A DNA stretch of 32,000 nt from positions 240,001-272,000 of the forward strand of contig NZ_CP043314.1 of assembly GCF_008189525.1 (NCBI RefSeq). Reading direction: 5' to 3'. The first letter of the stretch is position 1. Each line of letters starts with the position of its first letter. Of this stretch, positions 5,641 through 32,000 are shown one piece after another. The notes below the pieces were generated by a model. The model made no database searches. It was given only the letters and a program-made list of their open reading frames with translations, and had not been told where the DNA came from. Position numbers and translations under genes: made by a program. This DNA is from Candidatus Saccharimonadota bacterium (GTDB lineage Bacteria; Pseudomonadota; Alphaproteobacteria; CAJXXZ01; 1604HC).

Positions 5641-6285
5641 TTACTGTTTTGCTATTATAGTTTCTCCGGCTACTAAAGTTTGTCCTTTTTTTATACAAAC
5701 TTTCATGCTCTTTGGTATGTATACTTCAGTTCTGCTGCCGAATTTTATCATTCCATAGGTTTGTCCTATTTTTAAGTTTTCCTTCTCATTTACATCACAT
5801 ATGATTCTTCTAGCTACAAAACCAGCTATTTGAGATACTACGCAATCTATAAAGCCATTTATCTTCATAGATAATCTTTCATTAGTCATAAATACTTCTT
5901 TTTTCCAAGCGAAATCGAAACTACCTTCTTTATAAACTATTTTTTCTATATTCCCAGAAATTGGTGCTCTGTTCACATGAACATCTGTAACTCTTAAAAA
6001 AATACCTATTCTTGTGAACTTGTCTTCTTCTAGATCAAAATCAGGGCATGGATGATTATCTATTGCCACCACTATTCCATCAGCAGGGCTTACCACTATT
6101 CCATCTAGTGATGGCACAACTCTATTAGGGTCCCTGAAAAACCATATAGAAAATATATTAAAAGATAAAGCTATGAATCCAGCTATGTAATGGAAATAAA
6201 ACAACCCAATTGATAGAAAAAACGAAACAATTATGATTGGATATCCTTCTGATCTTATTTTATTTAGTAAGTATTTATTTATCAT
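5641..6285 (-). CDS. psd: phosphatidylserine decarboxylase proenzyme, short type
   Basis: FFRDPNR, SPADGIVV, TDVHVNRAPISG and the self-cleavage motif KFGS-RTEV (Gly-Ser site) are present. There are N-terminal TM helices; 214 aa. Confidence 0.85.
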   Translation of the reverse strand: MINKYLLNKIRSEGYPIIIVSFFLSIGLFYFHYIAGFIALSFNIFSIWFFRDPNRVVPSLDGIVVSPADGIVVAIDNHPCPDFDLEEDKFTRIGIFLRVTDVHVNRAPISGNIEKIVYKEGSFDFAWKKEVFMTNERLSMKINGFIDCVVSQIAGFVARRIICDVNEKENLKIGQTYGMIKFGSRTEVYIPKSMKVCIKKGQTLVAGETIIAKQ

Positions 6286-6944
6286 TGAATTTCCTTCAAG
6301 AAGTCATTATGCAATTTTTCTAACTTTGAAACAACAGTTTCTGCAGAAATTAGTTTTTGTGATTCCAAGACATCTAGTTCATGTTCAACAGGTAAATACA
6401 TATTTACATACCCACCTAAGTTTTGATTTGCATATTTTTGTCCGATTTTTAATAAATCTCCAGTTTTTACATAACAGCTCACAGATTGCAAAGAGTTTTG
6501 TGAAACATGCTCTATTATAATCTCTGTCTTTCCAGAAATGACAATTATCAAGCTTTCTCTCTTTTTATAGAAAATGTTTTGCTCTCCGCTTAAGCCTGGA
6601 TTGTAATAAATGTGCTTTACAGTTCCTTCTATAGGGCTCCTGCATACATGAATATCTGTTATTCCATTTTTTATTTCTATTTTGTTCCATTTTTTATCTT
6701 TATATTCATTTTCTGTTACTGAATCTAGGGCTATATCTTTTTTTATGGATTCTACTATTCCATCGCAAGGTGGTAAGCAAGAATCTGGATCTGTAATTAC
6801 TCTCTTTTCATCTCTGAATAGTAGCAAGATAAGTGCTGTGCAGAGTATAGGAGTGAAATACCCAAGAACGAATACTGTGAATAGGAAAATAAAGCATACT
6901 TTTATGGCTTTAAAACCTTGTTTACTTAGTTTTAATCTCAACAC
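6282..6944 (-). CDS. Psd-family paralogue lacking the pyruvoyl-forming serine (GS -> GG)
   Basis: It aligns with the adjacent psd over its full length (LFRDEKRV, PPCDGIVE, TDIHVCRSPIEG, LKIGQKYA). At the cleavage site it reads NLGG-YVNMYLP where psd has KFGS-RTEVYIP. It has a GTG start, overlaps the xseB stop by 1 nt and overlaps the psd start by 4 nt. Confidence 0.7.
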   Translation of the reverse strand: MLRLKLSKQGFKAIKVCFIFLFTVFVLGYFTPILCTALILLLFRDEKRVITDPDSCLPPCDGIVESIKKDIALDSVTENEYKDKKWNKIEIKNGITDIHVCRSPIEGTVKHIYYNPGLSGEQNIFYKKRESLIIVISGKTEIIIEHVSQNSLQSVSCYVKTGDLLKIGQKYANQNLGGYVNMYLPVEHELDVLESQKLISAETVVSKLEKLHNDFLKEIQ

Positions 6945-11434: not shown

Positions 11435-12493
11435 ATGAACTTAATTCATAGAGTTTTTCCGTATCTACAGAGAAAAGATAAAAACACTAAATGTGATTTT
11501 ATACCAAACCTAATGAATGTTAATTCATTTTCTGGTGGTTCTATGTGTAAACAAGATTTTAAAAATATAATCGTTTATAGATGTATTTCTCTTATATCAA
11601 GAAACATAGCTAATATTAAATGCTTCTTGTATGATTCGGAAAATAATAAAGTTAGCAACAATTATGTATCCAATTTGCTTATAAAGCCAAATGGGTACGA
11701 AACTTGGTTCGAGTTTGTAGAAAATTTGGTAACAAATCTTTGTTTGCATGGAAATGCTTATACTTATTTGGAGTCAGGTGAACATGGATATGAAATGTAT
11801 AACTTGAATCCAGAAAATGTAGAGATACTGAAAAATAAATATGGTCATGCTGAATCTTATAAAATCAAGGAAGAAAAAAATAAATATAACGTTTATAATT
11901 CATCTGAAATAATGCATATAAAGTTCAATAATCCTTATTGTCCTTGGGTTGGCTTGAGCCCAATGGGGTGCATAAAAGAATCTGTAAGGTTTTATGATAG
12001 TGTTACAAAACATAATCAATCAATTTTAGATAATGGTGGAAGACCTTCTGGAGCTTTTATATTGAAAAATAAAGTGGATGACTATGAGTTTGAAAAGCTA
12101 AAAAATAGCATAGCTTTGTCACACAAAGGAAAAGGAAACGCAGGCTCAATAATTTTACTGCAGTCTGATGTGGATTGGAAAGATTTAAGTATATCTTCTA
12201 AAGATATGGATTTTAATGTAGGAAAAAATATTGCTGCTAGAGAAATTTGTCAGGCTTTCGGAGTTCCTCCGGTAATGTTAGGTTTGCAAGATGCATCCTT
12301 TTCTAACTACAAAGAAGCTAGGTTGCATTTCTGGGAAGATACTTTGCTTCCTATGGCAAATAAAATATTACAAAAGATAAATGATCTGGTTTGGGTAAAC
12401 TTATCTGAAAAAGATTCTAGTTTAGAGAAGTTTTCTATAAAACCTGACTTCTCTTCTGTGCCAGCTTTGTCTGCAAAAAGCGAAAATGCATAA
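11435..12493 (+). CDS. phage portal protein, HK97 family (RcGTA g3-like)
   Basis: LHGNAYTYLE and CQAFGVPPVMLGLQDASFSNYKEARLHFWEDTLLPMANKI are the hallmark HK97-family portal blocks. 352 aa. Confidence 0.9.
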   Translation: MNLIHRVFPYLQRKDKNTKCDFIPNLMNVNSFSGGSMCKQDFKNIIVYRCISLISRNIANIKCFLYDSENNKVSNNYVSNLLIKPNGYETWFEFVENLVTNLCLHGNAYTYLESGEHGYEMYNLNPENVEILKNKYGHAESYKIKEEKNKYNVYNSSEIMHIKFNNPYCPWVGLSPMGCIKESVRFYDSVTKHNQSILDNGGRPSGAFILKNKVDDYEFEKLKNSIALSHKGKGNAGSIILLQSDVDWKDLSISSKDMDFNVGKNIAAREICQAFGVPPVMLGLQDASFSNYKEARLHFWEDTLLPMANKILQKINDLVWVNLSEKDSSLEKFSIKPDFSSVPALSAKSENA

Positions 12494-12629
12494 AATATGC
12501 TTAATGTATCACATATCCAATTAATATTATGAATATTATTTAAAACAATTAAACGAACAAAAAATAGGAGGTTTTATAATTAAATTATTAACTTATTCTA
12601 AAAAAGGTGGAGCCTTAGAAATAGAAGAA

Positions 12630-13214
12630 ATGGATTCCAATTTTGACAACATATCCGAAGAATTCTCAAAAATATGGGACTTTGTTTTATATCAGAAGAA
12701 AAATTTTAATGACATGGAGAAGAAATTGTCTGGGTTATTTGCAAAAATTGGTTCTGTCGTAGATCAGAAAATGGATAAGACAAATGAAAATGTAGATTCA
12801 GGAAATGAAAGAGATACAGGTGTAAATCTAATTGTAAGAGAGTCATCATTATCACAAGGCATGAAAAAAGATTTTGAAGAAGAGGATGATTACTATATTG
12901 AAAAGCAAAGTGATGAAATTGTAATTTATTCAAAGTCAGAGAATTCAAAGTGCTCAATAAATTTAGATAGGCTTTATGGTGAAGCTTTTAATATGAAGTT
13001 TGATGAAAACAAGCCTAAATCTTTCACGGGGCACAGGGATAAAATAGAAATAAAAAAATTGGTAAGTGAGTCAGAATTAGAGTCTTTGAGAAGATCTCTA
13101 GAATCTGGAGGCGTAGAAAATAAAGAAGAAAGTGCCTGTGTGTATATATTTGATGGAAAAGCATATTTCTATTATAAAGAAGAAAAAGAATTGAGTTATG
13201 AGAGCTTTGAGTAG
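12630..13214 (+). CDS. acidic hypothetical protein inserted between portal and protease
   Basis: 194-aa ORF, D/E/K/S-rich, with no motif I recognise. Its 3' end overlaps the protease start by 17 nt. The frame is open upstream to 12525, and a strong AGGAGG (12566-12571) is followed by ATA/ATT at 12576/12579, so the true start may be non-canonical and earlier. Confidence 0.55.
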   Translation: MDSNFDNISEEFSKIWDFVLYQKKNFNDMEKKLSGLFAKIGSVVDQKMDKTNENVDSGNERDTGVNLIVRESSLSQGMKKDFEEEDDYYIEKQSDEIVIYSKSENSKCSINLDRLYGEAFNMKFDENKPKSFTGHRDKIEIKKLVSESELESLRRSLESGGVENKEESACVYIFDGKAYFYYKEEKELSYESFE

Positions 13215-13620
13215 TGGTCTTAATGAAAATGAATTTATTGTGCAAGGGTATGCAAGTACATTTAATTTCAAAGATGGTCAGAGTGATATAATAAAACCAG
13301 GTGCTTTTGATAGTAAGAAAATAGATATTCCAAAAATAAAAATGCTTTGGAAACATGATATTATGAAGCCAATAGGGTATTGGTACGAAATGTTTGAAGA
13401 TGAGTGTGGGTTGTTCGTAAAAGGTAAAGTGTTTAGAAATCTATCTTTTGGAGAGCAAATTTGTAATTTTATAAAACACTCTTTTGTAAAAGGTTTGTCA
13501 ATAGGATATATACCAACTTCATTTCAAACATTTAAAAATTGTAGAATAATATCTAAGTTAAAGCTTTATGAAATATCAGTAGTTACAAATCCTGCTAATG
13601 AAAAAGCAAAAATAATCTGA
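13198..13620 (+). CDS. HK97-family prohead (maturation) serine protease (RcGTA g4-like)
   Basis: GYASTFNFKDGQSDIIKPGAFD, KMLWKHD (catalytic His context), KGLSIGY (catalytic Ser context) and a C-terminal EISVVTNPANEKAKI. 140 aa. Confidence 0.85.
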   Translation: MRALSSGLNENEFIVQGYASTFNFKDGQSDIIKPGAFDSKKIDIPKIKMLWKHDIMKPIGYWYEMFEDECGLFVKGKVFRNLSFGEQICNFIKHSFVKGLSIGYIPTSFQTFKNCRIISKLKLYEISVVTNPANEKAKII

Positions 13621-13667
13621 GTTAATCTAAATAAATTATGTTAATTGTTCTTTCTTGAAAGGGAAAA

Positions 13668-14780
13668 ATGAATATATTAAACAACAAAAACAGTCTAAAA
13701 AAGAATGTAAATACCTTTGGTGGTATGAGTTTTGATGGTGGAAGGTTTGAAGGTTCTAATTTGGAAAAACAATTAGATTCTGAGAAGCAACCTAAATCTG
13801 AAGAAATTCCTTCTAATATAGAGAAAAAATCTTATGGAGCTCCTCAAACTTGGGGATCCTCTGAAACTGAGTCAGTATCAAGTATAGCAAAGTATATTGC
13901 AGGTAATTTTTCTGATATAGAAACTAAATCAATGTCTAATTCATTTTTTAATAGTATAAGTACAAATAGAAATGGACATTATGTGCCTGATGAGTCAGGG
14001 GAAATTCTTCTAGAGAATGATTATTACTTCTCTCCAATAAGATCTAGAGCTAGAACTATATTTTCAGATAGAACTACATGTACTGTTAACAAATTTAACT
14101 CACCTGAAGTTACAGAAACTGATCCTAGCACGCCTTACCAAATTGGAACTAAAAAGCTAGAGCTATCAAAAGAAACTCTCAGTATGCATGCGTTGCAAAT
14201 TTGTATACCTGTTTCTCAAAATTCAGATGAAATTCATTCGATTGTGGATTTCGAAGAAGCAGTTAATAGAAAAATGTGCACTGAACTTTCTGAAAGAGAA
14301 AGAAACTTATTTATATCTGGAGTTGATGGAAAAATAGATAGCATTATACCTTCAGAATCTCAAACTATGACAGGTAAGCTAGATGATAACTATATTTCTC
14401 TTAGAAAAATGCTTACAAAGCTGGAGCTGAAATATCATAAGAATGCAGTTTGGTTTATGACACCAGAAACATATTATGAAAAAGTTCTAGGCCTTTCTGA
14501 TGCAAATAAGCGTCCTATATTGAATATGGATCAAATAAGCTCTGACTGTAATTCAATATTCGGAAAAGAAGTTGTTTTTGTAGAGGAGTTAAGAGGTTCA
14601 GGATGTGATATCATTCTTGCTGACTTAGAATCTGGTTATCTGATCTGCGAAAATAAAAATATTTTCTATCAAGAGGATCCATTTAGTGAGAAACCTATGG
14701 TACTTCATTACATGAGAAAATATATGTGTTCAAAAGTAATTGATGAAAAAGCTTTTGTAGGTTTTAAGGAATCTGCATAA
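13668..14780 (+). CDS. phage major capsid protein, HK97 family (RcGTA g5-like)
   Basis: The C-terminal block ADLESGYLICENKNIFYQEDPFSEKPMVLHYMRKYMCSKVIDEKAFVGFK follows the GTA/HK97 capsid pattern (GDF-x-GY-x-I-x-[DE]-[RK]...[RQ]-[DE]-[DP]-[YF]-[ST]-x-KP-x-V-x-[FH]-Y...A-x-x-x-[LF]-K). The N-terminal roughly 100 aa are S/E/K-rich and delta-domain-like. The gene sits immediately after the protease. Confidence 0.88.
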   Translation: MNILNNKNSLKKNVNTFGGMSFDGGRFEGSNLEKQLDSEKQPKSEEIPSNIEKKSYGAPQTWGSSETESVSSIAKYIAGNFSDIETKSMSNSFFNSISTNRNGHYVPDESGEILLENDYYFSPIRSRARTIFSDRTTCTVNKFNSPEVTETDPSTPYQIGTKKLELSKETLSMHALQICIPVSQNSDEIHSIVDFEEAVNRKMCTELSERERNLFISGVDGKIDSIIPSESQTMTGKLDDNYISLRKMLTKLELKYHKNAVWFMTPETYYEKVLGLSDANKRPILNMDQISSDCNSIFGKEVVFVEELRGSGCDIILADLESGYLICENKNIFYQEDPFSEKPMVLHYMRKYMCSKVIDEKAFVGFKESA

Positions 14781-15304
14781 TGCTTTTAGATTTACATTGT
14801 GAGAAAAAGTATGATTCGATTCCTATAAACATACAGTTTGTAAGAAAATGCTTTAACGTGCATGAAGACTTGGAAGATTCTTATATTGAAAAGTTATTGA
14901 AAATAGCTTGTGAAAAACTAGAATCTATAACTGGATCTTCAGTTATTGAAAAAGATTGGGTTTTGACAGCAAAAAGGGTTGAGATCAAGTTGTTTAAAGG
15001 TCCAGTGAGAAATGTTTCTAGTATATCTGTAAAGACTAGAAATGGAACATACAAAACAATACCAGTTGAAGATTATTATCAGAAAATTAATTTAGGAAAT
15101 AGAATTATAATCTTAAGTGAAAAGTATATGGATAAAATAATTAAAGTTAATTATTCTGCTGGGTACAGGGTAAATGAGCTGCCTGGAGATTTAGAAAGTT
15201 ATATTTTGAGAATGTTCGGAGATTTATACAATGGGAATATGGAAAGTAAAGCTGAAGAATATAAAGTTAGTAAGTCATATACAATGAACGAAATAAGAAT
15301 ATAG
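14780..15304 (+). CDS. gp6-like head-tail connector protein (RcGTA g6-like)
   Basis: The pattern FVRKCFNVHEDLEDSYIEKLLKIACEKLESITGSSVIEKDW...IKLFKGPVRNVSSISVKTRNG...IPVEDYY matches the family layout (D-D-x-x-I-x-x-L-I-x-A-A...E-x-x-T-G-x-x-[LI]...W...L-x-x-x-P-V-x-S-V-x-S-V). Its start overlaps the capsid stop (TAATG). Confidence 0.7.
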   Translation: MLLDLHCEKKYDSIPINIQFVRKCFNVHEDLEDSYIEKLLKIACEKLESITGSSVIEKDWVLTAKRVEIKLFKGPVRNVSSISVKTRNGTYKTIPVEDYYQKINLGNRIIILSEKYMDKIIKVNYSAGYRVNELPGDLESYILRMFGDLYNGNMESKAEEYKVSKSYTMNEIRI

Positions 15305-15306
15305 CA

Positions 15307-15705
15307 ATGATATTTAGGAATAATATACCTATGAAGAATATACTGAATGGATCTGTTCCATCAATGCATCATAGAATTTCTGTAATGTCTATTAAAACTT
15401 CTACTGAAAATAAGCTTCTGTCTAATGAATTTTGTATGACTGGAGAAAAGTTTTGGGGATATATACACTCTTCATCAATAGTGAAAAAGAAAAATAATGT
15501 TTTTGATAACTTCTTTGTAATAATATCTAATATTTCAGAAAAATGTTTGATAAGCAGTGGTTTTAATTGGAAAAATAGGTACTTTCAAAGGTATTCTAGG
15601 ATTCAACCGATTAATCAAAATGTTGGATATGTGTACGTAAAAGATATAACTGAAAATGGTTTAGAGCAGGTTAGCTTTAATGAACAGTACTTTTCTTTTC
15701 CTTGA
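15307..15705 (+). CDS. probable head-tail adaptor / head-closure protein (RcGTA g7 position)
   Basis: It starts 2 nt after the connector stop and has the right size (132 aa). The HHRISVMS...FWGYIH pattern loosely resembles the family's R-I-x-[IL]...[VF]-W-A motif. The call rests mostly on position. Confidence 0.5.
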   Translation: MIFRNNIPMKNILNGSVPSMHHRISVMSIKTSTENKLLSNEFCMTGEKFWGYIHSSSIVKKKNNVFDNFFVIISNISEKCLISSGFNWKNRYFQRYSRIQPINQNVGYVYVKDITENGLEQVSFNEQYFSFP

Positions 15706-15777
15706 TTCTTATGCTCTGAACTCTGAAAAACAAAAAGTTCATAAACAATAATATAAAAAATCAAAGTGGGTGAAAAA

Positions 15778-16104
15778 ATGTATGAATTACTAGAAGACGT
15801 TTGGAAAGAAATTAGAAAAGAGATTGGTAATGTTTATTTAGGTGATAAGGTTTGCGAGTTTGATAAGAGTTGCTCTGTCTCAATAAAAAGTTTTGTGAAA
15901 AATTTAGATTATATAAATGTGAAAATATCATGCTGCTTTAATTTTAAGAAAAAAGACAGTGAATATTATGAACAGATGATTAACTTGGAAAGTAATATAC
16001 ACAACCTAAAAAATAATATTTTGATAAAAGATTTAAAAACTAAAATAGATTTAGAAAAGTCTAAAGTGGATATATTTATTATTAAAGAAATTAAACAAAG
16101 CTAG
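15778..16104 (+). CDS. small hypothetical protein in the RcGTA g8 (DUF3168-like) position
   Basis: 108 aa from the ATG at 15778, which has GGTG about 7 nt upstream; the ORF track starts at a GTG at 15766. The call is positional only, with no convincing motif. Confidence 0.35.
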   Translation: MYELLEDVWKEIRKEIGNVYLGDKVCEFDKSCSVSIKSFVKNLDYINVKISCCFNFKKKDSEYYEQMINLESNIHNLKNNILIKDLKTKIDLEKSKVDIFIIKEIKQS

Positions 16105-16215
16105 TTTCAAAAAACTCAATAAATCAAATAATTAAAAACTAAAATAAATTACAGCAAATAATATTTAATTTAAAGTAATATTTGTTAATTTATCAAAAAA
16201 GAAAGAGAGTAGTGT

Positions 16216-16674
16216 TTGATCGAAATAAAGGATCTGTTAAAAGATCGTAGTGAAATTATAAGCGGAGATTGCTCATTATTATTGAACTCTAATAATATTC
16301 GTAATTTAGAAGGAGCTTTAATGCATGATTCAAATTCATGCTCAAACAAGTACCAGATTAAAATAAGTGGTGAATCAGATCTTCCAGAGATTTTCCTAAA
16401 TGGTGAGCTTCTAATAAAATCTCCTATAAGATTTTTTCAATTCGTAAATAAAGAAGAAAAAATAATGTTTAATAGAAAACCTGCTGAAGGATCTATACTG
16501 TTTTCAAAGAGAGATCAAATTACAAAAACAAATGTTCTTGTAGAAGAGGACTATCGTCCTGGGTGCGATGGTAAGGTAAATTACAAGCCACTATTTAATG
16601 TTTTTGTTAAAAGCATATCTTGTGACTTTAAAAATTTAGAAACAAGATGGGCAGTTGTTTTGGATGAGAAATGA
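16216..16674 (+). CDS. hypothetical protein (152 aa), unassigned
   Basis: TTG start preceded by AGAGAG. It is separated from the previous gene by a 111-bp AT-rich spacer, and its stop overlaps the next start (ATGA). No tail-tube or other family motif is recognisable. Confidence 0.45.
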   Translation: MIEIKDLLKDRSEIISGDCSLLLNSNNIRNLEGALMHDSNSCSNKYQIKISGESDLPEIFLNGELLIKSPIRFFQFVNKEEKIMFNRKPAEGSILFSKRDQITKTNVLVEEDYRPGCDGKVNYKPLFNVFVKSISCDFKNLETRWAVVLDEK

Positions 16675-18197
16675 ATTGTTTTTGTGTTTATCTGACATCT
16701 AATAGTGACTTAAGTAAGTTTAATTCCAGTGATGTGAGGAAAATCGATGATACTACTAAGGTCAAAATTGTTCAATCCAAGTTTGATTATGTAGAAGCAG
16801 AAATATATGTTTCTTCATTTATATCGGATTTAAATAAATATCCATTTTTAATTATAACGAATGATCATGGTGTAATGTTTTTTGGAAGCTATGAATATAT
16901 AAATAAACAAAATAATTCTTATAAAATATCATTCAAATCAAAAGCTTCTAGTGAAAAGAAACAAAAATGTTTGGATAAAGAGTTTTTAAATAATGGATTA
17001 AGTAATGCTTTGGATCCTAAAGGAAATGTAGTAAATAGTCTAGTATATTCAGATTCGTTGATGGGATGTGAAAGCATATTCGATGACAAGGAAGATTCTT
17101 ATTCAATAGACAGTATGTCCATTCTTAGTAGAAATGATTTTTTAAAGAAAGAATATAATTCAGTAGAATCTGAAGAAAGTTTCTCTGTTACTTTTTGTTT
17201 TTCTTGGGATGATCACATTTTCAGGCAGAGTGATGTTTTCGAAGAAGTGTATAAGAATTTTAAAGAGAATGAGCTGTCTAAATGGCCTCAAAAATTTTCT
17301 AAACATGGTCAGTATACAATTTCAAACTCTTTTATAAAAAAAGAATATGGAAATGTTTATGGTGCTTTGGTTTTGGATTGGATGGAATTAATAAAGAGAA
17401 GAGAAAAATGGTGCTTTAATATATTTGGAGCAAATGTATCCAAAGACTTAAACTTGAATATTGATCTTAACAAGGTTTTTTCTGGTTGTGATGAATGGAA
17501 AGAGAAGCAGTTTTATAAGAAAAATGACTCTGTTTCTTATGAAAAGTCAATTTTTATTTGTGCTGTAGATCATTTTTCAGGATTAGTTTTTGATTTGGAA
17601 TATTGGATAGAATCAGATAAAAAACCAGAAATTTTACAAAAGAATAAAGATAATATATTTGATTCAGAAGCTGGAAAATTGCTTTTATATCAAATCAAAA
17701 ATATGCTTTTTGCTTACACTAGAGCGTATCAATATGATTATATATTGGAAGTGAAAATAAACTTAACAAATTCTTTGGATTTATGCTTTGTACAGCTTAT
17801 GGATAAAGTGAGATTTAAATCTGTGGAAGATGGAAAAATATATACAGGTGTGGTTTTTGAGTATGAAAAGACAATTTCTGATAAAGAGTCTATTTTGTTT
17901 TTAAAGATAAAAAGTTTAACAAAAGTAAAAAGCTTTGATTCAGATATTATTTATTATTTTAGAGATGAGTACTGTAAATCCTATTGCTTTGAATATGAGC
18001 ATAAAAGATTGAAAGACCTTTATTTTAAAAGAATTTTTGATAAATCAAGTATAAAGTCTCATTCTGATCTTTTGAAGAATTTAAATATGGTTATAGATTT
18101 TATAGAAGATGAAGAAAAGTTTCTGGGAATAAAAATTAATTCAGTGCAAAAAAAATTACCTGACTTGTGCTTGAATTATGAAGTAAGGAGAAAATAA
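16671..18197 (+). CDS. hypothetical protein (508 aa), unassigned, aromatic- and Cys-rich
   Basis: A 1.5-kb uninterrupted ORF in AT-rich DNA is very unlikely by chance. It is coupled to the upstream ORF by an ATGA overlap. I can assign no family. Confidence 0.65.
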   Translation: MNCFCVYLTSNSDLSKFNSSDVRKIDDTTKVKIVQSKFDYVEAEIYVSSFISDLNKYPFLIITNDHGVMFFGSYEYINKQNNSYKISFKSKASSEKKQKCLDKEFLNNGLSNALDPKGNVVNSLVYSDSLMGCESIFDDKEDSYSIDSMSILSRNDFLKKEYNSVESEESFSVTFCFSWDDHIFRQSDVFEEVYKNFKENELSKWPQKFSKHGQYTISNSFIKKEYGNVYGALVLDWMELIKRREKWCFNIFGANVSKDLNLNIDLNKVFSGCDEWKEKQFYKKNDSVSYEKSIFICAVDHFSGLVFDLEYWIESDKKPEILQKNKDNIFDSEAGKLLLYQIKNMLFAYTRAYQYDYILEVKINLTNSLDLCFVQLMDKVRFKSVEDGKIYTGVVFEYEKTISDKESILFLKIKSLTKVKSFDSDIIYYFRDEYCKSYCFEYEHKRLKDLYFKRIFDKSSIKSHSDLLKNLNMVIDFIEDEEKFLGIKINSVQKKLPDLCLNYEVRRK

Positions 18198-18199
18198 AA

Positions 18200-18319
18200 A
18201 TGCATGTTTTTTTAGATTTAATTTATAATGAAAGTTTTGAGTTGGCTAGTATAGCTAACCATAAGCAAAAAGAAGTTTTTATAAGCTTTATTCAAGAAAA
18301 TATAGGGAGGTTATCATAA
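18200..18319 (+). CDS. possible 39-aa coupled ORF, or the 5' part of a frame-disrupted gene
   Basis: ATG at 18200 lies 2 nt after the preceding stop, with AGGAG 8 nt upstream. It translates as MHVFLDLIYNESFELASIANHKQKEVFISFIQENIGRLS. It is not in the ORF track because it is under 60 aa. Confidence 0.3.
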   Translation: MHVFLDLIYNESFELASIANHKQKEVFISFIQENIGRLS

Positions 18320-26247: not shown

Positions 26248-27600
26248 ATGTTTTCTTCTGGTCCCACTAAAAAGCACTGTGATTTTGATATAAAGTCATT
26301 AGGAAATTTTCTTAAGCAAAGAAATCATGTTTCTGATCAAGGTATAGAAAAAATAAAAGAACTTTCGGATAAAGTAAGAGAGTCATTAAAAATCCCACAT
26401 GATTACAAAATAGGGTTTGTAAATGGATCTTGCACAGGAGCTTTAGAAGCAGTATTTTGGAATGCTTTGGGTGATAGAAGTGTATTTGTGTTGGATTATG
26501 GGCTGTTTGGGAAAAGATGGGCTGATGATATATTGTTAAACATTAAAATGCCAGGAAAAAGGCTTGATTTATCTCAAATTGAATTAATTAAAAAAGCAGC
26601 ATCAAATAATGGTTCCTATAATAGCTCTTATGACACAAGTAAAGGTTCTGAATTAAGGGTATCTGAAAAAGAAATAGAATATGAAACTCCAATAATTTAT
26701 GATAATGATTTTGTTTTTACTATGACAGAAACTGCAACTGGGGAAAAGTGGTTTGACAAAGAGTTTCTGAGAAAAGTTAAAGGGCTAAGGATTGCTGATC
26801 TTACATCAGCTGTCTTTTGTGAAGAAATAGAATGGGATTTTCTAGATTGTGCAGCATTTTCATTCCAGAAAGCTTTGGGTGCAGAAGCAGGTTTGGGTTG
26901 TATAGTAATGAACCCTAAAGGATTTAGAAGAGTTTTAGAAAGAGAAAAAATATCTAATAAATCTGTATGTGCGAAATTTCCTATTCCTAGATTTATGAAA
27001 ATAACTGAAAATCTTTTCAAAAATATAATGCCTAATACCCCATCCTTTATTGTTGTAGAAGATATAATACAGAGCATAAATTCATTTATGAAGCTAGGTG
27101 GGATTAAAAACTCAATAAAAGAGTGCACAAATAATAGAGAGTGTTTATTGAAAAACATCTGCTATTTAGAAAATGTGAATAAAGCTTGTTTGTTCGATAA
27201 TGAGTCTAGTGATGGTGGATATGCTATGAATAATATTCATACCTGTAATGAAACTATTGAAAATAATGATAATGATGTAAAAAACCTTAAATCTGAATTT
27301 ATTGCAAAGTCAGGAAATGAATTAGATACGTTAAGATCAATTCAACAATCTAATTATGTTTTGTGCTTAAAACCATCTTACAAGAAATGGAACTATTTAA
27401 GTAAAAATGAAAAATGGAATTTCATAAATTTAGTTGCAGAAAAATTAGAGGGATATGATGTTTTAGGAATTGTAGGTCATTCTATGTCTGAGCCGTGTTT
27501 TAGGTTTTGTACTGGGCCTACAATATTTGTAAATAAACAATATATTAAATATTTCATGCAAACATTTATTAATGTTGCAGAAGACAAAGATATTACATAA
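26248..27600 (+). CDS. serC: phosphoserine aminotransferase, alphaproteobacterial type, with low-complexity insertions
   Basis: MFSSGPTKK (the F-S-S-G-P-C-x-K start), IPHDYKIGFVNGSCTGALEAVFWNALG, and AFSFQKALGAEAGLG (PLP-Lys context, like S-W-Q-K-V-L-G-G-E). It is 450 aa; by my recollection homologues are roughly 380-390 aa, and the excess sits in N/S/K-rich segments. Confidence 0.8.
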   Translation: MFSSGPTKKHCDFDIKSLGNFLKQRNHVSDQGIEKIKELSDKVRESLKIPHDYKIGFVNGSCTGALEAVFWNALGDRSVFVLDYGLFGKRWADDILLNIKMPGKRLDLSQIELIKKAASNNGSYNSSYDTSKGSELRVSEKEIEYETPIIYDNDFVFTMTETATGEKWFDKEFLRKVKGLRIADLTSAVFCEEIEWDFLDCAAFSFQKALGAEAGLGCIVMNPKGFRRVLEREKISNKSVCAKFPIPRFMKITENLFKNIMPNTPSFIVVEDIIQSINSFMKLGGIKNSIKECTNNRECLLKNICYLENVNKACLFDNESSDGGYAMNNIHTCNETIENNDNDVKNLKSEFIAKSGNELDTLRSIQQSNYVLCLKPSYKKWNYLSKNEKWNFINLVAEKLEGYDVLGIVGHSMSEPCFRFCTGPTIFVNKQYIKYFMQTFINVAEDKDIT

Positions 27601-30016: not shown

Positions 30017-30571
30017 TTATTTTATAATTTTATATTTAAGTATATTTCCAGGAGGGAAGTTTCTCCATACAGTTTCAATTCTCTTGCATGTCATGTCGAA
30101 GTTTTTATACTTAAATGGTGAAAATGGAGTGTAAGTAAGCTGTAGATATGTTGCTCCTGTTTGTAACATGATTTTTTTATAGGTTTCAATAATTTCTAAT
30201 GATTTTTTCTTTCCCAAAGACAGTAAAGGCACAGTAGATAATATGTATTTAATATCTTTTATGGTTTTTAAATCTAATATATCGTATATATCGCAAATAT
30301 CTTTGTTTATGAAAGTTGACTCAGGGAATCTTTTTCTCAAATCATTACAGAACTCTTCTTGGATTTCGAAAGATATTAATTTAGATTTGTTCTCCATCTT
30401 GTTGTAGACGTGTTCTGTTATTGTTCCGGTCCCAGCTCCAACTTCTAATATTGTTCCAGAGTTCAAATCCATATTTTTTATAAAAGCTTTTGATAAATGG
30501 CTAGAGCTTGGAATAACTGATCCTGTAAGTTTGGGGTTTTTTATATATTGTTTAAAAAATACTTTTTTCAT
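30017..30571 (-). CDS. pmtA: phospholipid N-methyltransferase, Sinorhizobium PmtA type (COG3963-like class I SAM methyltransferase)
   Basis: The N-terminal FFKQYIKNPKLTGSVIPSSSHLSKAF matches the family's F-x-x-W-[IL]-x-x-P-x-x-[VT]-G-[SA]-[IV]-x-P-[ST]-S block. The SAM motif I is ILEVGAGTGTIT. 184 aa. Confidence 0.75.
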   Translation of the reverse strand: MKKVFFKQYIKNPKLTGSVIPSSSHLSKAFIKNMDLNSGTILEVGAGTGTITEHVYNKMENKSKLISFEIQEEFCNDLRKRFPESTFINKDICDIYDILDLKTIKDIKYILSTVPLLSLGKKKSLEIIETYKKIMLQTGATYLQLTYTPFSPFKYKNFDMTCKRIETVWRNFPPGNILKYKIIK

Positions 30572-31242
30572 TTTGTTTTTCCTTCTTTAATCTCTTTCTT
30601 TTGACTATTTTCTTCAGAAAAATCCATTCCTTTTACTATAGATGAAAAGGCTTCAGAGCAATTTTTATAAGAATAATGATTTACATGTACAGTAGGAAAA
30701 GATTTTATTTTTTTGCTTAGAAAATCAACAACACCTCTGTTCTTAAACACATTAGAATAAAAAGATGTATAGGAGAAATGCAACATAGGGCATAAATTAG
30801 ATTCCATTATATCAGAACATTGGTTAAGTATTTTATTTCTTTCTGCTTTATTTATTAATAAAAATGGGATAGAGGATATTATTAATCTAACTCTACTCAT
30901 TTCCTCTGGAGATATTATTTCAGAAAGATCTGCAGCATTTCCTTGTATTATTTTTACATTCTCGAATTTTTTTCGCAGAACTTTGCAAAAACTATCATTA
31001 ATTTCTATACATATTGATTGTGCAGAGCTATATGCTTTATTGTTTATATATTTTGTCAATGACCCAGATCCTCCGCCTATTTCAAGAATTATGTCATTTT
31101 GAGATAGGTTTTGTGAAAAATGTAAGATATGTTTACCTGCTTTTTTTGGGATCTCTCTAAAGGTCCCGGTTTTTATTGGATTTTTTAGCCAATTCAAAAA
31201 GAACATCATCTTAGTCATAAGGGTTATTCTATCATAGTTCAA
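30568..31242 (-). CDS. second, more divergent PmtA-family SAM methyltransferase (tandem paralogue)
   Basis: FLNWLKNPIKTGTFREIPKKAGKHIL plus ILEIGGGSGSLT show the same architecture as the downstream gene. There is a 4-nt stop/start overlap. The C-terminal tail is K/E-rich. Confidence 0.6.
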   Translation of the reverse strand: MNYDRITLMTKMMFFLNWLKNPIKTGTFREIPKKAGKHILHFSQNLSQNDIILEIGGGSGSLTKYINNKAYSSAQSICIEINDSFCKVLRKKFENVKIIQGNAADLSEIISPEEMSRVRLIISSIPFLLINKAERNKILNQCSDIMESNLCPMLHFSYTSFYSNVFKNRGVVDFLSKKIKSFPTVHVNHYSYKNCSEAFSSIVKGMDFSEENSQKKEIKEGKTK

Positions 31243-31335: not shown

Positions 31336-31408
31336 GCCAAAATAGCTCAGTTGGTAGAGCAACTGATTCGTAATCAGTAGGCCAGGTGTTCGAATCACCT
31401 TTTTGGCA
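31336..31408 (+). tRNA. tRNA-Thr, anticodon CGU
   Basis: A manual cloverleaf gives 73 nt. Acceptor GCCAAAA/TTTTGGC, discriminator A. D arm GCTC-AGTTGGTA-GAGC. Anticodon arm ACTGA-TTCGTAA-TCAGT (U33, CGT, A37). Variable loop AGGCC. T arm AGGTG-TTCGAAT-CACCT. No CCA is encoded. Confidence 0.9.
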
Positions 31409-31739
31409 ACTTAATCCCTACAGTCTTAAGTCACCTTTTTGGCAACTTAACTCCTTCGGACTTAAATCACCTTTTTGGCAACTTAATCCCTACAGTCTTA
31501 AGTCACCTTTTTGGCAACTTAACTCCTTCGGACTTAAATCACCTTTTTGGCAACTTAATCCCTACAGTCTTAAGTCACCTTTTTGGCAACTTAATCCCTA
31601 CAGTCTTAAGTCACCTTTTTGGCAACTTAACTCCTTCGGACTTAAATCACCTTTTTGGCAACTTAATCCCTACAGTCTTAAGTCACCTTTTTGGCAACTT
31701 AATCCCTACAGTCTTAAGTCACCTTTTTGGCAACTTAAC
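31395..31739 (+). repeat. 36-bp tandem array (9 full units plus a terminal partial core) seeded on the tRNA-Thr 3' end
   Basis: The core is TCACCTTTTTGGCAACTTA (T-stem 3' strand, acceptor 3' strand, discriminator, then ACTTA). It is followed by one of two 17-nt fillers: A = ATCCCTACAGTCTTAAG, B = ACTCCTTCGGACTTAAA. Unit starts are 31395, 31431, 31467, 31503, 31539, 31575, 31611, 31647 and 31683, with a partial unit at 31719. The order is A B A B A A B A A. Copies of each variant are identical by eye. Confidence 0.97.
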
Positions 31740-32000
31740 CTATAAATAATTTGCATTATATTAACTGGTAACACGAACATAATTCATAAGTTAGGAAGCA
31801 TGATCATTGTAATTTAAATTATAAATTTGTACATGTAACTACTTGTTTAATAGTTTTTCAATTTTTTACTGTTTTTTTTCGCTTTTATGTTTTAGAATTT
31901 GCTGTGACTTTTTTAATATTATCATTAGGGCTCTTACTGTCAAAATTCTGGCAAGAAACTATGGTTATTTCTATTAATCCACTTTCTGAAGTAATTAATA

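Follow-up and report, generated by a model that had tools for sequence, protein, structure and literature searches.

A perfect 36-bp tandem array that begins inside an intact tRNA-Thr(CGU) gene and reiterates the 3′ end of this gene is probably a young, lineage-specific, neutral minisatellite that is non-coding and serves no required function. The array is located near the right end of the 32,000-nucleotide stretch of DNA analyzed herein, which we call the window. This DNA derives from Candidatus Nesciobacter abundans, which belongs to the Holosporaceae and lives as an endosymbiont in Diplonema japonicum, a diplonemid and marine protist (PMC13598402). The tRNA gene and the repeat units are arranged as follows.

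31336 to 31408, plus strand: intact tRNA-Thr(CGU) gene, anticodon CGT, no encoded CCA (ARAGORN; Rfam RF00005, 75.7 bits; alignable with the orthologues of four relatives)
31395 to 31739, no strand assigned: 36-bp tandem array, nine full units plus a 21-nt partial unit (TRF, exact-core count, unit listing)
31395 to 31430, no strand assigned: A-type unit, core plus filler TCCCTACAGTCTTAAG (unit listing)
31467 to 31502, 31539 to 31574, 31575 to 31610, 31647 to 31682, and 31683 to 31718, no strand assigned: the other A units, identical to the first
31431 to 31466, no strand assigned: B-type unit, core plus filler CTCCTTCGGACTTAAA (unit listing)
31503 to 31538 and 31611 to 31646, no strand assigned: the other B units, identical to the first
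31719 to 31739, no strand assigned: terminal partial unit, core plus C (B-like), followed by unique sequence

The preliminary description of this DNA had reported the tRNA gene, the 36-bp array, a 19-bp core that recurs ten times at an exact 36-bp period, and two fillers in the order A B A B A A B A A that are identical within each variant. ARAGORN, Rfam, and TRF agree on the gene and the array, and the 19-nt core TCACCTTTTTGGCAACTTA is found in 10 exact copies with 0 mismatches and exact 36-bp spacing, compared to 0.03 copies expected by chance. Likewise, the listing of units recovers the same filler order and the same identity among the copies of each variant. The length of the core requires revision: an A always comes next after the 19 nt, so the invariant block is really 20 nt, and it extends to 21 to 22 nt around B units. 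The first core copy corresponds to the final 14 nt of the tRNA, TCACCTTTTTGGCA.

TRF delimits the array to positions 31395 to 31738, with a period of 36, 9.6 copies, 0% indels, and a score of 562. Apart from the array, no repeat in the 32-kb window scores above 60, and the array is the only sizeable one in the ~49 kb of N. abundans DNA sampled. Its left edge falls at the T-loop/T-stem of tRNA-Thr(CGU), and its right edge lies 165 nt ahead of the start codon of a gene for an MFS transporter. The A and B units differ at six positions, all of which are within the filler and none within the 20-nt core (P = 0.004 to 0.006 for this placement by chance). As in bacterial minisatellites, the 36-bp copies are arranged head to tail with high identity and with no unique DNA between them. 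As at att sites, the repeated block is a direct repeat of a tRNA tail (14 nt plus 6 nt of trailer) located 3′ of an intact tRNA gene.

We consider it highly improbable that the array is an assembly artefact in which the copy number or the A/B order was invented by the assembler. The window is identical to OY490516.1 (assembly GCA_960610765.1; 616,058 bp) across all 11,984 bases that the two share. The bacterial genomes in the data note for this assembly were obtained from PacBio HiFi reads with metaMDBG (PMC13598402), and a 345-bp array is well within the length of single reads. An older, Illumina-based N. abundans assembly comprises 616,088 bp, which differs from the HiFi assembly by 30 bp overall, and the aperiodic order of the A and B fillers is atypical of collapse or expansion. 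In favor of an artefact, only one of the two contigs has a record of the exact 119-aa open reading frame (ORF) that spans the array. This frame has the following position.

31386 to 31745, plus strand: 119-codon open frame across the array, judged spurious

The preliminary description had drawn attention to this frame and to the peptide period SPFWQLN[PS][YF][SG]LK that it specifies. The frame does exist and was called by a gene caller, and we add that a second plus-strand frame is open as well, such that two of the three forward frames continue through the array. One possibility is that the array encodes a tandem-repeat protein, such as a secreted effector, of 119 aa and with a period of 12 aa (SPFWQLNPYSLK). 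The 119 open codons, the gene-caller prediction, and the A/B differences, which in this frame are either synonymous (two changes) or conservative replacements (P/S, Y/F, and S/G), are all in keeping with such a protein. However, the sole start codon of the frame is a GTG inside the tRNA T-arm, no ATG, GTG, or TTG is present inside the array in either open frame, and the second frame is equally open. The proportion of synonymous differences (two of six) is the chance expectation. The ORF product has no family match and no homologue among 5.8 billion clusters, the latter being a weak negative given that the ORF itself is absent from the protein collection. Judged by these sequence features, the array is almost certainly non-coding, and we regard the repeat protein as extremely improbable.

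A chain of small hairpins had also been proposed for the array. The ACTTAA and TTAAGT arms on which this proposal was based are present, but stable folding is not predicted, as the filler hairpins formed as RNA reach only -0.6 (A) and -2.0 (B) kcal/mol. The most stable hairpin found locally has -5.3 kcal/mol, and what it encloses is not a filler but a core that follows an A filler. When folded as DNA, single units yield -0.2 to -3.5 kcal/mol, mostly no better than shuffled sequences, and the tRNA plus the array folds with z = -1.75 relative to shuffles, with unit hairpins near zero. A search of Rfam at a permissive threshold returned the tRNA and chance-level matches only, and no terminator-like site was found 3′ of the tRNA or inside the array. 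A structured RNA element or an intrinsic terminator was rejected given the tRNA-only Rfam result, the hairpin energies of -0.6 to -5.3 kcal/mol, and the lack of any terminator-like site. With no terminator after the tRNA, transcription probably continues through the array, which would form a 3′ trailer.

A functional role for the array as an RNA or DNA element is very unlikely, although two forms of this proposal can be envisioned. The co-transcribed repeats could provide single-stranded tRNA-3′-end mimics that act as decoys for tRNA-end-recognizing enzymes or toxins, or that are antisense to the tRNA 5′ strand. Alternatively, the array could tune the maturation of tRNA-Thr or the read-through into the MFS-MnmA-AcpS genes. 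Such roles would be consistent with a core that is invariant while the filler is variable, with the lack of a terminator between the tRNA and the array, with the shared orientation of the array and the MFS gene, and with the minimum-free-energy fold, in which the tRNA 5′ acceptor strand is able to pair with a distal core copy. However, the array is absent from all relatives examined (see below), its overall folding is no better than that of shuffled sequences, it has no Rfam match, and its cores are not accompanied by the complementary strands that would be needed for an acceptor/T minihelix. Processed tRNA-end mimics, which were among the alternatives of the preliminary description, find no support in the sequence.

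Other types of repeat were likewise considered and rejected. A CRISPR array would carry many unique spacers of similar length, whereas here there are only two 16- to 17-nt "spacers," each used three to six times, and there are no cas genes among the neighbors. For a partition-site or iteron array (sopC-like), the short ACTTAA/TTAAGT arms are present, but no par or rep gene resides in the neighborhood. A sigma-54 or sigma-70 promoter in each unit was dismissed because the -35-like TTGGCA in the core is not followed by an acceptable -10 box. Finally, the fillers match the T-arm by eye at only 4 to 5 of 16 positions, which is the chance level for degenerate T-arm copies, and no source for the A and B fillers was found in 146 kb of clade DNA.

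The array is flanked by the following features.

30568 to 31218, minus strand: PmtA/RrnaAD-like methyltransferase gene, left neighbor, divergent from the tRNA
31735 to 31762, plus strand: promoter-like site TTAACC, 16-nt spacer, TATATT, across the array end (consensus match only)
31904 to 32000, plus strand: start of the MFS transporter gene, which exits the window (gene call; synteny in five relatives)

The MFS gene is the first of a conserved MFS-MnmA-AcpS block, and the site at the end of the array is a possible candidate promoter for it, as judged by its match to the consensus. The 8.5 kb past position 32000 encode MFS, MnmA, AcpS, a protein of unknown function, a DedA/VTT protein, XseA, RNase E/G, and a Mur ligase. 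About 3 kb past the window end (~35,000 in the joined sequence; ~5,600 in L001), gene orientation switches from plus to minus and the cumulative GC skew peaks, which could reflect a replication terminus or merely an effect of gene orientation; a search for dif-like sites gave no noteworthy match within eight mismatches.

On the opposite side, the left neighbor is one of two PmtA/RrnaAD-like methyltransferase genes (30017 to 31218, minus strand) that are tandem paralogues overlapping by 4 nt. A second pair of tandem paralogues with a 4-nt overlap encodes phosphatidylserine decarboxylase-like proteins (5641 to 6944, minus strand), and both pairs concern phospholipid head-group metabolism. Further upstream of the array, the gene at 26248 to 27600 (plus strand) codes for a 450-aa phosphoserine-transaminase-like protein whose family match comes in two separate stretches and falls far under the curated cut-off, which suggests a divergent or insertion-bearing SerC.

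The segment from the T-loop to the 3′ end of a tRNA gene is the classic identity block of tRNA-targeting integrases. Our starting description had offered, as one reading, an amplified att site, possibly at the border of an island located past the window end. The evidence does not support this reading. No integrase or recombinase was detected in ~10 kb downstream or 31 kb upstream of the array (precomputed Pfam annotations and our own scans), no distal core copy was found in 8.5 kb downstream (at most three mismatches) or 31 kb upstream, and no island or foreign DNA is evident in the ~10 kb to each side. Instead, the downstream genes are housekeeping genes that are syntenic in five relatives. 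An island would bring an integrase gene next to the tRNA and kilobases of foreign DNA between the repeats, whereas only 16 to 17 nt separate the copies. It would also create a break in synteny at the distal repeat, whereas the array is followed by the conserved MFS-MnmA-AcpS genes.

Integration-derived tRNA fragments have been reviewed (PMC9897764), and displaced tRNA 3′ fragments that bound genomic islands represent the attL/attR direct repeats of tyrosine-integrase elements (PMC9897764; PMC4383910). The N. abundans repeats are similar to these in that the block comprises the T-loop or T-stem 3′ strand, the acceptor 3′ strand, the discriminator, and a few trailer bases, and in that an intact tRNA is present at one end. 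They differ in number and spacing, with ten copies at 36-bp intervals where island-bounding repeats number two and are separated by kilobases, and in that the array has neither an integrase nor cargo and is flanked by conserved housekeeping genes.

A related explanation, which we view as unlikely, is that an att scar seeded the array. An integrase-borne element would have inserted in the T-loop-to-3′-end segment, left attL and attR as direct repeats, and then decayed until only a few bases were left, after which the two att copies mediated amplification in tandem. This history would fit the extent of the repeated block (T-loop through 3′ end, with 6 nt of trailer) and the 9.6 copies, which imply that two cores existed before expansion. 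It would also fit a tRNA-Thr(GGU) gene of a relative, C. primus, where a third tail copy resides 206 nt downstream with similarity that reaches the T-loop. However, the lack of an integrase and of foreign DNA in the ~10 kb flanking the array on each side, the 16- to 17-nt distances between copies, and the synteny of the downstream housekeeping genes in five relatives count against a scar just as they do against an island. Moreover, mobile elements are reported to be very few in these endosymbiont genomes, which retain RecA/RecFOR and MutSL (bioRxiv 10.1101/719211).

Phage-like genes do occur in the window. A phage portal gene, an S78 prohead protease gene, and a major capsid gene, followed by unannotated ORFs, are located at 11435 to 18200 (plus strand) among housekeeping genes. 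These constitute a head cluster of the GTA type, and a GTA-type cluster has already been described in these endosymbionts (PMC9254644). The cluster, whose portal, protease, and capsid genes occupy 11.4 to 14.8 kb, is at a distance of 13 kb from the tRNA on its 5′ side, with FtsZ, EF-P, and other core genes in between, and is therefore not an element bounded by the array.

Database searches recovered no other example of the array. The core plus trailer is present in no phage, viral, or plasmid record; blastn matches to phages and plasmids are confined to the tRNA body, and the core has no match in viral contigs. In a collection of genome contigs that evidently does not include the N. abundans genome, the 20-nt core has only two isolated matches, both in Staphylococcus simulans and with no tRNA there. 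A pattern for the clade-wide tRNA 3′ end gave no match in metagenome contigs.

We compared the locus with those of five related complete genomes, which were reached via MnmA homologues. These are MAG CP060235 (L006), C. indipagum (L007), C. primus (L008, OX638200), and two more genomes of ~620 kb (L010 and L011). The coordinates of the locus in each are as follows.

L006, 8601 to 8673: tRNA-Thr(CGU) locus
L007, 8525 to 8599: tRNA-Thr(CGU) locus
L008, 8618 to 8690: tRNA-Thr(CGU) locus
L010, 8251 to 8324: tRNA-Thr(CGU) locus
L011, 8300 to 8835: corresponding locus

The MFS-MnmA-AcpS block is kept in all five relatives, and the orthologous tRNA-Thr(CGU) is there in four of them. In MAG CP060235, C. 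indipagum, and C. primus, a NUDIX gene and MFS flank the tRNA, which is on the opposite strand and points its 5′ end toward MFS. In L010, it is inverted together with tRNA-Leu and the NUDIX gene has been lost, while in L011 it is missing from the locus. The N. abundans locus is also without the NUDIX gene that adjoins the tRNA in the first three relatives, and its tRNA has its 3′ end toward MFS-MnmA-AcpS, unlike three of the four relatives that retain the tRNA here. The left-neighbor PmtA/RrnaAD-like gene is not beside tRNA-Thr(CGU) in the relatives, and a homologue search with its product matched only itself. Given these flips in orientation and the absence of the tRNA from one genome, the locus is a hot spot of rearrangement. 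We also observed that the tRNA-Thr(CGU) of L010 (8251 to 8324; Cytomitobacter) is one base short at the T-loop/T-stem junction (GATT-ACC) compared to the other four genomes.

The array is absent from the orthologous locus in the relatives, and neither copies of the tRNA-Thr(CGU) tail within 2 kb nor orphan fragments were found in any of the five. The tRNA bodies align across genomes, while the trailers and flanks have no detectable similarity, and mapping of breakpoints between N. abundans and the relatives by flank homology gave no signal. On the genomes compared, the array is specific to N. abundans and occupies a spot that has been rearranged repeatedly in the clade.

A parallel was found at a different gene. 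In C. primus (OX638200, 1134 to 1413, minus strand), the last 17 nt of tRNA-Thr(GGU), AAATCTCTCCAATGGCA (plus TA), are reiterated, once in a perfect 65-bp × 2.0 tandem duplicate and once more at 206 nt downstream, within a 636-bp gap free of genes. Each of these two tail copies has its start in the T-loop. When 19 tRNAs from the six genomes were surveyed for tail copies, only tRNA-Thr(CGU) of N. abundans and tRNA-Thr(GGU) of C. primus carried them, always downstream and on the same strand. The C. primus reiteration (1134 to 1357) is similar to that of N. abundans in that it occurs in the same clade, starts in the T-loop, runs through the discriminator into the trailer, and is located downstream on the same strand. 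It differs in involving another tRNA, in having only three copies, and in its unit lengths (65 bp, with the older copy at +206 nt).

The C. primus case hints at a recurrent process. The two cases may reflect chance together with a tolerance filter, or else a process anchored at the T-loop, for which an old att scar and fork stalling with template switching at tRNA genes are candidates. An extended version of the latter idea is that the Cytomitobacter/Nesciobacter clade experiences recurrent, T-loop-anchored downstream copying of tRNA 3′ segments, either by a cryptic site-specific recombinase or by fork stalling and template switching at highly transcribed tRNA genes, and that the N. abundans array has been kept because it supplies ten single-stranded mimics of the tRNA-Thr 3′ end. 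If true, retention of transcripts carrying such mimics would explain why the cores are invariant. We judge this combined proposal to be quite unlikely.

Rather, we favor the minisatellite explanation, which the preliminary description had listed among its alternatives as a product of slippage. The array is lineage-specific and perfectly homogeneous, is not found after the tRNA in relatives, is non-coding, and is essentially unstructured. Its formation probably began with a short tandem duplication that reached from the T-loop (left edge, TTCG|AATCACC) to ~22 nt into the 3′ trailer (right edge). The leftmost copy would complete the tRNA gene, and thus the tRNA would remain intact and the duplication would cost nothing. 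The identical 20-nt cores would then serve as substrates for replication slippage or for RecA-mediated unequal exchange, and a clustered 6-nt change in one unit would have given rise to the B filler. From a start of A-B-A, at least three block duplications (of A, then AB, then BAA) would produce the order A B A B A A B A A. This minimum number follows from contraction of the present order, in which BAA-BAA, AB-AB, and A-A can each be collapsed. Because there are no private substitutions in 324 bp, all of these events are likely to be recent. The cores would be identical because they have been homogenized among themselves, with the first core held by selection on the tRNA. Any transcript of the array would be cut off at the discriminator base and then degraded.

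The presence of RecA/RecFOR and MutSL and the scarcity of mobile elements support this minisatellite mechanism. In addition, perfect young arrays arise in relatives as well (9 bp × 16.3, 9 bp × 11, and the 65-bp × 2.0 duplicate of C. primus). The young arrays elsewhere in the relatives are as follows.

L007, 14483 to 14629: perfect 9-bp × 16.3 array, inside an 89-aa ORF
L008, 7307 to 7405: perfect 9-bp × 11 array, next to the CSD gene
L011, 13107 to 13380: 120-bp × 2.3 array, inside a 489-aa ORF

Some observations do not fit the simplest form of the minisatellite explanation. The placement of all six A/B differences in the filler is unexpected under neutral divergence (P ~0.005), and it requires tRNA-anchored homogenization, a single clustered mutation, or constraint on the core; we attribute it to one or the other of the first two. 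The non-integer copy number (9.6) indicates that a single simple duplication is not the whole history. Also, the independent, T-loop-starting reiteration in C. primus suggests a directed process rather than random slippage. A further point against the explanation is that no second array of any size was found in the ~49 kb of N. abundans DNA sampled.

Tandem repeats in Ehrlichia ruminantium are reportedly actively variable. Intergenic VNTR loci of Wolbachia provide another example from obligate intracellular Alphaproteobacteria (PMC3287509). These loci share several properties with the N. abundans array: intergenic copies repeated head to tail with perfect or near-perfect identity, a unit some tens of base pairs long, a small, AT-rich genome, restriction to a lineage, and an origin ascribed to slippage or unequal exchange. 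In contrast, the N. abundans unit has its start within a functional tRNA gene, whose 3′ end it repeats, and there are only two unit variants, whose differences are all outside the tRNA-derived core. Variation in copy number is the hallmark of slippage loci and would be expected of the array if the minisatellite explanation holds.

A second point of comparison is the control region of animal mitochondrial genomes, where repeats can include part of the adjacent tRNA-Pro, tRNA-Thr, or tRNA-Phe gene, with slipped-strand mispairing as the accepted mechanism. The similarities are a compact genome, an array that starts within a tRNA, and a first copy that keeps the gene intact. However, the mitochondrial repeats belong to another genetic system with another mode of replication, and they are typically heteroplasmic, with documented variation in length.

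If the array is indeed a minisatellite, then it would be a handy strain marker for an uncultured endosymbiont, and it would indicate that a 616-kb genome described as stable still makes young repeats at rearrangement breakpoints. Alternatively, if T-loop-anchored reiteration proves to be systematic, having affected two tRNA-Thr genes in two genera independently, it would point to a specific mutational or recombinational mechanism at tRNA genes. Such a mechanism, if true, would act in genomes that carry no obvious mobile elements.
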